Both the position numbers and the translations under genes were made by a program. A DNA stretch of 64,000 nt, taken from IMG/VR virus record IMGVR_UViG_3300020331_000002. One strand, 5' to 3'. Below, piece after piece: positions 29,891 through 40,160 of the stretch; within the stretch, counting starts at the first letter, position 1; the number at the start of each line of letters is the position of its first letter. The DNA comes from a virus (Duplodnaviria > Caudoviricetes). The notes under the pieces were generated by a model. The model saw only the letters and a list, made by a program, of their open reading frames with translations. It made no database searches and had not been told where the DNA came from.

Positions 29891-29970
29891 TGGCGCAGGT
29901 GTAGGGAGTCGAACCCTCAAGTCTCTCGACACGGTTTTGGAGACCGCTTTGCTCGCCAATGCGCACCTAC
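29891..29970 (-). tRNA. tRNA-Trp(CCA) with extended variable arm
   Basis: GCGGU-CUCCAAA-ACCGU; variable hairpin GUC-GAGA-GAC; G73, CCA. Confidence 0.85.
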
Positions 29971-33808: not shown

Positions 33809-33905
33809 TAGTACCAGGTACGGGATTCGAACCCGCAGGGTCATTATTGCAGACCGCGACAAGCACTTCCGTGATGCCGCGCCTTCCCATTCGGCGCAAC
33901 CTAGT
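33809..33905 (-). ncRNA. atypical tRNA-like gene (CGG loop, A33, long variable arm, ACUA end)
   Basis: Paired acceptor, D and T arms; loop CACGGAA; about 25-nt variable region. Confidence 0.65.
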
Positions 33906-34868: not shown

Positions 34869-34948
34869 TGGCGCGGCAGGTAGGAGTCGAACCCACATGT
34901 TTCCAATTACTCTTTCGACTGGTTCGTAGCCAGAGGAGATACAACCGC
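34869..34948 (-). ncRNA. rearranged tRNA-Arg(ACG)-like RNA lacking a 5' D arm
   Basis: Acceptor GCGGUUG/CUGCCGC-G-CCA, CUGG-CUACGAA-CCAG, D-loop-like UAAUUGG located 3' of anticodon arm. Confidence 0.7.
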
Positions 34949-37389: not shown

Positions 37390-37489
37390 TGGTGGACCCC
37401 CGCGGACTTGCACCACACGCCTCAATACTACCCCCACTTTATTTCTTTTAAGACACCGGATTTACAGTCCGGGGTGGGGAAAGGGATCC
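37390..37489 (-). ncRNA. rearranged tRNA-Tyr(GUA)-like RNA lacking a 5' D arm
   Basis: GGAUCCC/GGGGUCC-A-CCA; CCCCAC/GUGGGG helix enclosing CCGGA-CUGUAAA-UCCGG; degenerate T loop UGCAAGU. Confidence 0.7.
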
Positions 37490-37551
37490 TTAATCTGTTA
37501 CAAAAAACTGTTTTGGGAGGGGTCGCTACCAACCCCTCAATAAAACAATTC

Positions 37552-40085: not shown

Positions 40086-40160
40086 TGGTGCCGAGTGGTG
40101 GTACCGCCCCACCCTCTAAGGATTTTCAATCCATCGCTAATCTGTCTCAGCTAACTCGGC
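40086..40160 (-). tRNA. tRNA-Phe(GAA), non-canonical T loop
   Basis: GCCGAGU/ACUCGGC-A-CCA; T loop GGCGGUA. Confidence 0.85.

Follow-up and report, generated by a model that had tools for sequence, protein, structure and literature searches.

The 64,000-nucleotide (nt) stretch of viral DNA analysed here (Duplodnaviria; Caudoviricetes; IMG/VR record IMGVR_UViG_3300020331_000002; hereafter the window) carries a gene for a transfer RNA (tRNA)-like molecule with a tyrosine anticodon, in which no local hairpin provides the D stem: its counterpart joins one strand on the 5′ side of the anticodon arm to another within the loop of the variable arm. We find that this gene is a member of a large and widespread class of tRNA-Tyr that resides in phage and bacterial tRNA arrays and is apparently undescribed. 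Full-text literature searches for a tRNA whose D stem is formed by the variable-arm loop retrieved no description, and the tRNA-like candidates listed in a 2023 catalogue of structured RNAs from viruses are all unnamed (PMC10690425). We are close to certain that the structural class, a pseudoknotted RNA with a permuted D arm, holds. Judging from the sequences, we also lean towards the view that the gene encodes a working tRNA-Tyr of a non-cloverleaf class.

In all members, the acceptor stem has 8 bp and the T stem 4 bp, and a 6-bp helix (H) is crossed by the variable-arm stem (P). Helix H joins the strand located 5′ of the anticodon arm (H5′) to a strand inside the variable-arm loop (H3′), while P, which is 4-5 bp long, adjoins the 3′ end of the anticodon stem and stops 1-2 nt short of the T stem, the variable-arm site of class II tRNAs. 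Because H3′ lies within the loop of P, the two helices cross and the RNA is pseudoknotted. In the window copy, the acceptor and anticodon stems are separated by a spacer of 9 nt without a local D stem-loop (UU, CCCCAC and the single C between H5′ and the anticodon stem), which is too short for a hairpin to form between the two stems. The 12-bp acceptor/T branch is split 8/4, not 7/5, one U (T in the DNA) lies between the P3′ strand GGCG and the T arm, and the molecule has a 7-nt anticodon loop, CUGUAAA, a discriminator base and CCA. The A36-A37-A38 context is that of bacterial tRNA-Tyr.

An earlier note, made from the letters of the window alone, had reported an acceptor stem with an ACCA end and a CCCCAC/GUGGGG helix enclosing a perfect Tyr anticodon arm, all of which are indeed present on the minus strand. 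Its description of the RNA as lacking a D arm is inaccurate, as H is a D-stem equivalent made by long-range pairing with the variable-arm loop. The T arm, which it had called degenerate, belongs to a branch of an 8-bp acceptor stem and a 4-bp T stem; given this 8/4 split, the arm is short and has an unusual UGCAAGU loop, and is not degenerate. The second conserved helix, P (UGUC/GGCG in the window), which crosses H, goes beyond what that note had seen.

Covariation carries the case for this structure. In an alignment of 81 members, 95.4% of the cells in the five helices are paired, compared with 75.0% in shuffled alignments, and 431 cells are changed on both sides, compared with 108 in the shuffles. 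When the partner columns are slid by 1-3 positions, pairing amounts to only 37-55%. The eighth acceptor pair (8-92), which gives the branch its 8/4 split, itself covaries (GC 51, UG 17, AU 8, UA 3, CG 2). In helix H, pairing reaches 99.8% and three pairs covary; variants of this helix include CCCUAC/GUAGGG, CCCGUC/GACGGG, CCACAC/GUGUGG, CCUAAC/GUUAGG and CCUGUC/GACAGG, among others. Helix P is 95% paired, with changes on both sides at four pairs; since P was left out of the covariance model (R1), its support is independent of the model fit. A blind, alignment-free census points the same way: among the 101 unique pattern matches listed, 83 contain a perfect complement of their own H5′ strand no more than 30 nt after P5′, compared with 8 of 101 for the reversed H5′ and a mean of 15 for the H5′ of another member. 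Finally, a close relative of the window phage, a complete 306.5-kb viral contig with terminal repeats, carries the gene in surroundings that are 94.5% identical to the window over 2.2 kb. The two copies differ at 2 of 100 positions (RNA positions 13 and 56), and these are the two sides of one H pair (C-G to U-A).

The linker between P5′ and H3′ (L2) is 89% A+U across the family and is usually 6-7 nt long. The segment after H3′ (L3) starts with YGG in most members, and this start occurs together with a UUCRA T loop in 73 of 81, with neither feature present in 6 and only 2 discordant. Such co-occurrence would be expected of a GG that touches the T loop in the manner of G18 and G19. The family consensus T loop is UUCRAYU; variant loops like the UGCAAGU of the window are also found in members L073, L078 and L089. 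The window copy is of a minority type (GUAGU..., loop UGCAAGU) that lacks YGG and is shared with L073 and L089. The segments of the window copy are listed below.

Table. Segments of the permuted tRNA-Tyr gene in window coordinates, in 5′ to 3′ order of the RNA after the first line
Feature	Position	Strand	Details
Permuted tRNA-Tyr(GUA), whole gene	37390..37489	-	100 nt with encoded CCA; model R1 73.5 bits, E 6e-21
Acceptor stem, 5′ strand	37482..37489	-	8 nt, GGATCCCT (RNA spelling GGAUCCCU); partner 37394-37401
UU connector, acceptor stem to helix H	37480..37481	-	found in all members
H5′ strand	37474..37479	-	CCCCAC; geometric counterpart of D-stem positions 20-25
Anticodon arm	37456..37472	-	CCGGA-CUGUAAA-UCCGG; anticodon GUA at 37463-37465; U33 and A37
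P5′ strand	37452..37455	-	UGUC; variable-arm stem, abuts the anticodon stem directly
Linker L2, A/U-rich	37438..37451	-	UUAAAAGAAAUAAA; 14 nt, within the variable-arm loop
H3′ strand	37432..37437	-	GUGGGG; equivalent of the D-stem 5′ strand, moved into the variable-arm loop
Segment L3	37422..37431	-	GUAGUAUUGA (DNA spelling GTAGTATTGA); D-loop equivalent
P3′ strand	37418..37421	-	GGCG; two G-C and two G-U pairs with UGUC
T arm	37402..37416	-	GUGG-UGCAAGU-CCGC; 4-bp stem, loop UGCAAGU
Acceptor stem, 3′ strand	37394..37401	-	GGGGGUCC (DNA spelling GGGGGTCC)
Discriminator A73 and encoded CCA	37390..37393	-	ACCA end

A scan for sigma-70 promoters and terminators around the window gene found none, and an upstream shared word, TAACAGAT, occurs at chance frequency (3 observed, 2.85 expected). 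At 37525-37546 on the minus strand, 36 nt upstream of the gene, lies a 7-bp hairpin, GAGGGGU-UGGUAGCG-ACCCCUC, the loop of which resembles a tRNA D loop. A U-run follows it after a gap of 10 nt; a simple terminator scan gave no call here, and the hairpin may be the terminator of the upstream open reading frame (ORF).

The family was collected with a seed pattern that fixed only the 5′ half of the gene (UU, CC...C, part of the anticodon stem and the loop). This pattern matched at least 119 viral contigs, and about 100 of the matches listed share the full architecture, amounting to 84 unique sequences. The 81 aligned members, which measure 85-96 nt before the CCA, all score at least 72 bits with R1, and the best non-member scores 49 bits. 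About 75 of them come from viral contigs and three from Pseudomonas podophages, with further copies in the tRNA arrays of Planctomycetota. Two narrower patterns tried before had matched the close relative only, and a third, placed on the 3′ side of the anticodon loop, gave mostly chance matches. In searches against GenBank phages, 1.4 kb queried with megablast gave no match, and the commonest family type queried with blastn gave none at 1e-4 and, at E≤10, only Pseudomonas phages and relatives of a KVP40 tRNA gene discussed below. Distant blastn matches led to an unannotated homologue in Pseudomonas phage SCYZ1, and thence to homologues in phages Rembedalsseter and Lyrsu01-03. At the site that the permuted form occupies in SCYZ1-like phages, between Asn and Pro, LUZ24-like phages (Pseudomonas phage Ab22, L003 340-426, reverse strand) have an annotated 87-nt tRNA-Tyr, itself odd, with two U-U mismatches in the acceptor stem, an enlarged D region and the anticodon at position 38.

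Standard tRNA detection overlooks this class. As the earlier note had proposed to check, we ran ARAGORN on the window gene, which it missed in every bacterial mode: there was no call with default settings, lowered thresholds, intron options or tmRNA (transfer-messenger RNA) mode, and the mitochondrial mode reported only a 56-nt fragment. None of the 84 unique family sequences is called by ARAGORN. The window copy has no match to the Rfam tRNA clan (searched at E≤1 across 30 kb and at E≤10 across 161 nt), and the best Rfam scores of other members, 27 bits with tRNA-Sec and 26 bits with RF00005, are below the cut-offs. A canonical cloverleaf refold and an intron-containing tRNA, both sought by hand, were rejected, since neither a D arm nor a second anticodon arm can be formed in any register.

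The window's ordinary tRNA genes, as called by ARAGORN, are all on the minus strand between 17.5 and 40.3 kb. There are 23 by default, and Phe, Trp and a third CAT (CAU) tRNA are added at a relaxed threshold. The resulting 26 tRNAs cover 19 amino acids without a canonical Tyr, which bears out the earlier note's count and its statement that the only Tyr anticodon is in this RNA. The Phe (40086-40160, minus strand) and Trp (29891-29970, minus strand) tRNAs, seen at the relaxed threshold only, have peculiarities of their own: the T loop of the former is GGCGGUA, to be compared with GGCGGAA in family member L078, and the latter has an extra hairpin in its variable region.

The same vacancy recurs across the family. 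Among 80 loci annotated with ARAGORN, Tyr is found in 5 and each other amino acid in 25-43; among the 25 loci with at least 15 ARAGORN tRNAs, Tyr is found in 2 and each other amino acid in 18-24. The family thus fills the Tyr slot of otherwise near-complete tRNA arrays, the window included. In the complete relative genome, there is no canonical tRNA-Tyr among 25 Rfam tRNA matches and the permuted gene is conserved, so that neither of the two findings that the earlier note had named as speaking against a real tRNA, a canonical tRNA-Tyr elsewhere and a lack of conservation, was obtained there. No phage tyrosyl-tRNA synthetase (TyrRS; PF00579) was found in that genome either, and charging would therefore depend on the host enzyme.

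Bacterial TyrRS recognises its tRNA by G1-C72, A73, G34/U35 and the long variable arm. G1-C72 and A73 each occur without exception (81 of 81 members), 74 of the 81 genes encode CCA, and the window copy has all of these, together with the GUA anticodon and a helical variable arm (P) that abuts both stems, the loop of which is not free, as it holds H3′. We propose that RNase P would excise the RNA and that host TyrRS would charge it by way of G1-C72, A73, G34-U35 and a variable arm at the usual junction; the charged RNA would then read UAY codons for the phage. In the three Pseudomonas podophages, a sigma-70 promoter lies 20-36 nt upstream of the gene, with consensus matches of 12/12, 11/12 and 10/12, and in phage Rembedalsseter the permuted gene is the sole tRNA-like gene.

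How such a molecule could take the shape of a tRNA is suggested by tRNA geometry. In a normal tRNA, the strand 22-25 runs via position 26 into the anticodon stem. H5′ likewise continues into the anticodon stem, and we therefore regard it as the replacement of the D-stem 3′ strand: it would stand in place of positions 20-25 and run through the equivalent of position 26. H3′ would take the place of positions 10-15, and the YGG that follows it would be located where Y17-G18-G19 normally are and play the part of G18-G19 against the T loop. The UU connector would lead from the acceptor stem to that end of H which faces the elbow, close to the site at which normal tRNAs bring U8 together with A14 and A21, and the A/U-rich linker would bridge P5′ to H3′. 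The D arm would thus be circularly permuted and threaded through the loop of the variable arm, a layout that could preserve the stacking of the helices, the elbow and the L shape. The permuted order would result if a tandem duplication were followed by two deletions. A plausible ancestor type, as far as its sequence suggests, is the gene annotated as 'tRNA-Pseudo-2' in phage KVP40 (L140 1480-1561; NC_005083 177438-177519), which, like its copy in L009, has a GUA anticodon and a D stem of 5 bp with an AAGGU loop, its arms following the canonical order. The KVP40 gene has an intact acceptor stem, ACCA, a GUA anticodon arm, a variable arm and a T arm, and is probably a working Tyr tRNA wrongly flagged as pseudo.

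Bacterial copies, sought in one genome per species, are found in Planctomycetota metagenome-assembled genomes and in a cultured member of the phylum, Thalassoglobus neptunius KOR42; they lie within dense tRNA arrays, and their CCA is not encoded. Five Planctomycetota genomes examined have one copy each, and a strong match is present in 6 of 151 sampled Planctomycetota genomes. In T. neptunius, the permuted gene shares a 12.4-kb array contig with 24 other tRNAs, none of them a canonical Tyr, and the normal tRNA-Tyr resides in a chromosomal Thr-Tyr-Gly-Thr cluster. The idea that the permuted form serves Planctomycetota as their housekeeping tRNA-Tyr was rejected, given the canonical Tyr of T. 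neptunius and the presence of the permuted form in 6 of 151 genomes only. The class belongs to the spare (accessory) tRNA sets of phages and bacterial arrays, and not to the housekeeping set. The accessory arrays of Planctomycetota (L277, which is contig 74 of T. neptunius KOR42, 12.4 kb; L153; L163) hold 20-30 tRNAs in 5-8 kb without encoded CCA; their tRNAs have lower Rfam-model scores than the dispersed housekeeping tRNAs, and one of them is called Phe(AAA).

Several observations weigh against reading the gene as a working tRNA-Tyr with a permuted D arm. Canonical and permuted Tyr genes coexist in the arrays L042, L081, L116 and L134, and T. neptunius retains its canonical housekeeping tRNA-Tyr; the permuted form may therefore be dispensable. 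In one marine sample (two runs), metatranscriptome contigs extend across the gene, and such contigs carry no proof of transcription, ends or strand; those from two other runs cover only the neighbouring ORF. The window copy is an outlier of the family: L2 is long, YGG is absent, the T loop reads UGCAAGU, two of the pairs in P are G-U, and no member has a lower model score. Its single-sequence fold energy is not exceptional when compared with shuffles (z = -0.94), so that energy alone is uninformative. The single sampling pattern under-represents the diversity of the family and imposes invariant columns (UU, CC..C, CGG and CUGUAAA); in particular, the invariance of UU is not independent evidence, because UU belonged to the search pattern. 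That H and P form simultaneously within an L shape is something we infer from known tRNA geometry.

The earlier note had left open whether the RNA is functional or a decoy for anticodon nucleases. We favour the functional half of this suggestion, given the covarying family, the invariant G1-C72, A73 and GUA, and the filled Tyr slot, and consider the other half unlikely, in the broader form of a tRNA-Tyr mimic that is not used by the ribosome and serves as a decoy or sponge, either occupying or falsely triggering host nucleases (PtuAB-type or anticodon nucleases) or sensors directed at tRNA-Tyr, or taking up a host factor that binds tRNA. The podophages in which the gene is the only or nearly the only tRNA gene, behind very strong promoters, fit an anti-defence RNA equally well; the body of the molecule is unlike that of every known ribosome-competent bacterial tRNA, and hosts that carry the gene can retain a canonical Tyr. 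A decoy should, however, copy the part that a nuclease recognises and could dispense with the marks for charging, yet it is the variable and D arms that have changed, while the features used in charging and by EF-Tu (G1-C72, A73, CCA and the 12-bp acceptor/T branch) are retained. Moreover, the permuted gene replaces rather than accompanies canonical Tyr in 23 of the 25 large arrays.

A charged tRNA-like carrier acting outside decoding, as an amino-acid donor, a primer or a regulator of host TyrRS or the stringent response, would also account for the conserved identity elements of the acceptor branch, and tRNAs do have non-translational uses in bacteria (review cited as reference 13 in PMC10690425). 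We hold this to be less probable still, as the anticodon loop CUGUAAA and the 5-bp anticodon stem are intact, the neighbours are other tRNAs with no conserved partner gene among them, and the filling of the slot in arrays points to decoding. Rejection by tRNA finders, and the annotation of the related KVP40 gene as a pseudo-tRNA, could suggest that the gene is a decayed tRNA-Tyr pseudogene or a chance tRNA-like sequence. We give this hardly any weight and, because the helices covary, treat it as excluded: compensatory changes run through five helices across 81 members, the two phages with 94.5% identical flanks differ by a compensatory pair only, and the podophages have dedicated promoters upstream of the gene. 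A working, decoding tRNA-Tyr is thus the reading that we prefer.

The rewired architecture may not be limited to Tyr. Gene L136:3808-3891 (plus strand) has a UCU (Arg) anticodon in the same permuted layout, with a CCCGAC/GUUGGG helix followed by GG; it scores 49 bits with R1 and is missed by ARAGORN. In the window itself, positions 34869-34948 (minus strand) encode a second tRNA-like RNA without a local D hairpin, 80 nt long, with an ACG (Arg) anticodon and a GCCA end. It consists of an acceptor strand, UAU, CUC, C, an anticodon arm, CGAAA, GAG, UAAUUGG... and a normal T arm; neither ARAGORN nor Rfam calls it, and it scores only 17.6 bits with R1. The flanks of this site are nearly identical in the 306-kb relative, where they enclose a canonical 78-nt tRNA-Arg(ACG), from which it follows that the two forms have been swapped like a cassette. 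Further tRNA-like genes of these viral tRNA arrays that ARAGORN misses are found at L078:4075-4161, L105:636-713 and L036:6491-6569 (all plus strand), with UAU, GCU and UAA among their anticodon loops. Another locus of the window, 33811-33905 (minus strand), is called by ARAGORN as a 95-nt tRNA-Pro(CGG), and the matching place in the relative (L006 17502-17598, minus strand) as a 97-nt tRNA-Stop(UUA); both are over-long, and the locus may be a variable, possibly suppressor-type tRNA.

A selective force that could have produced the permuted form is suggested by recent work on phage defence. The PtuAB effector of Septu and retron-Eco7 cleaves the variable arm of host tRNA-Tyr at C48/A49, and the tRNA-Tyr of phage T5, which is driven by a very strong promoter, is reported to be resistant through its distinctive variable loop (PMC13096335; PMC11555353). 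Evasion of tRNA nucleases by phage tRNAs is an established theme in the literature (PMC10264068, PMC11464382). With its variable-arm loop tied up in the D stem, a tRNA-Tyr would be a plausible escape form against PtuAB-type nucleases. We speculate that the D and variable arms were rewired under selection by nucleases that cut the variable arm of ordinary tRNA-Tyr, a proposal we regard as possible and short of probable. Equally tentative is the fullest version of our reading, in which a pseudoknotted tRNA with a circularly permuted D arm is charged with Tyr and read by the ribosome, has spread by escape from PtuAB-type nucleases, and also occurs with other anticodons, as the Arg(UCU) and Arg(ACG) look-alikes would indicate.

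If the RNA is a working tRNA, it breaks the rule that the tRNAs of bacteria and phages are cloverleaves, and TyrRS, EF-Tu, RNase P and the ribosome must all accept a D stem that is assembled across a pseudoknot. Since ARAGORN and the Rfam models are blind to the permuted form, phage tRNA censuses, and the arguments on codon usage and 'missing' isoacceptors built on them, are wrong for Tyr in many large phages. The class is also linked to phage defences that target tRNA, in that the PtuAB cut site in the variable arm of tRNA-Tyr is the very part that has been remodelled, and it offers a natural scaffold for the engineering of orthogonal tRNAs.

The close known systems include the bacterial class II tRNA-Tyr(GUA) (RF00005; copies in T5 and T6), which shares with the permuted class G1-C72, A73, CCA, a 12-bp acceptor/T branch, the loop CUGUAAA, the position of the variable-arm stem (flanked by the anticodon and T stems), the setting in phage tRNA clusters and, as far as most members are concerned, a GG segment that goes with a UUCRA T loop. 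Unlike it, the permuted class has no local D hairpin, holds the 3′ strand of its D-stem equivalent and the GG segment within the variable-arm loop, so that two helices cross as a pseudoknot, splits the acceptor/T branch 8/4 and not 7/5, and is undetected by RF00005 and ARAGORN. The KVP40 'tRNA-Pseudo-2', annotated as tRNA-Tyr in phage VH1_2019 and present as a copy in L009, shares the Tyr(GUA) identity and the setting in a T4-type tRNA cluster. Its anticodon arm is similar (GCGGA/UCCGU), its acceptor branch is readable as 8/4, it has a 5-bp D stem and a GG-containing loop, and it scores 35 bits with R1; however, its D hairpin lies 5′ of the anticodon arm and its variable arm is an ordinary hairpin, so it looks unpermuted.

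A circularly permuted order of segments is reportedly also found in the tRNA genes of Cyanidioschyzon merolae (Soma et al. 2007), where permutation affects the entire gene and processing by way of a circular intermediate gives back a normal cloverleaf; in the present class, both ends are normal, permutation is confined to the strands of the D arm, and the mature RNA would stay permuted. The tRNA-like structure (TLS) of the turnip yellow mosaic virus (TYMV) type and mimics of the YrlA type share tRNA mimicry with a connectivity other than that of the cloverleaf. They differ in that the TLS has its pseudoknot in the acceptor arm at the 3′ end of an mRNA, YrlA lacks an acceptor end and an anticodon function, and neither sits in a tRNA set. 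Mitochondrial tRNAs that lack the D arm, for example tRNA-Ser(AGY), also have no hairpin between the acceptor and anticodon stems and also escape standard detectors (PMC7609411); these are truncated molecules in which the D stem is simply lost, whereas the window RNA is 100 nt long and rebuilds a 6-bp D-stem equivalent by long-range pairing. The (8/4) allo-tRNAs and tRNA-Sec-like tRNAs, for which neither a Tyr species nor a pseudoknot is reported (Mukai et al. 2017, PMC5389517), share the 8/4 split, a 6-bp D stem, a long variable arm and an occurrence in phage tRNA clusters; they differ from the permuted class in their cloverleaf order, with a D hairpin closed by a tetraloop, and are Ser, His, Cys or Sec species.

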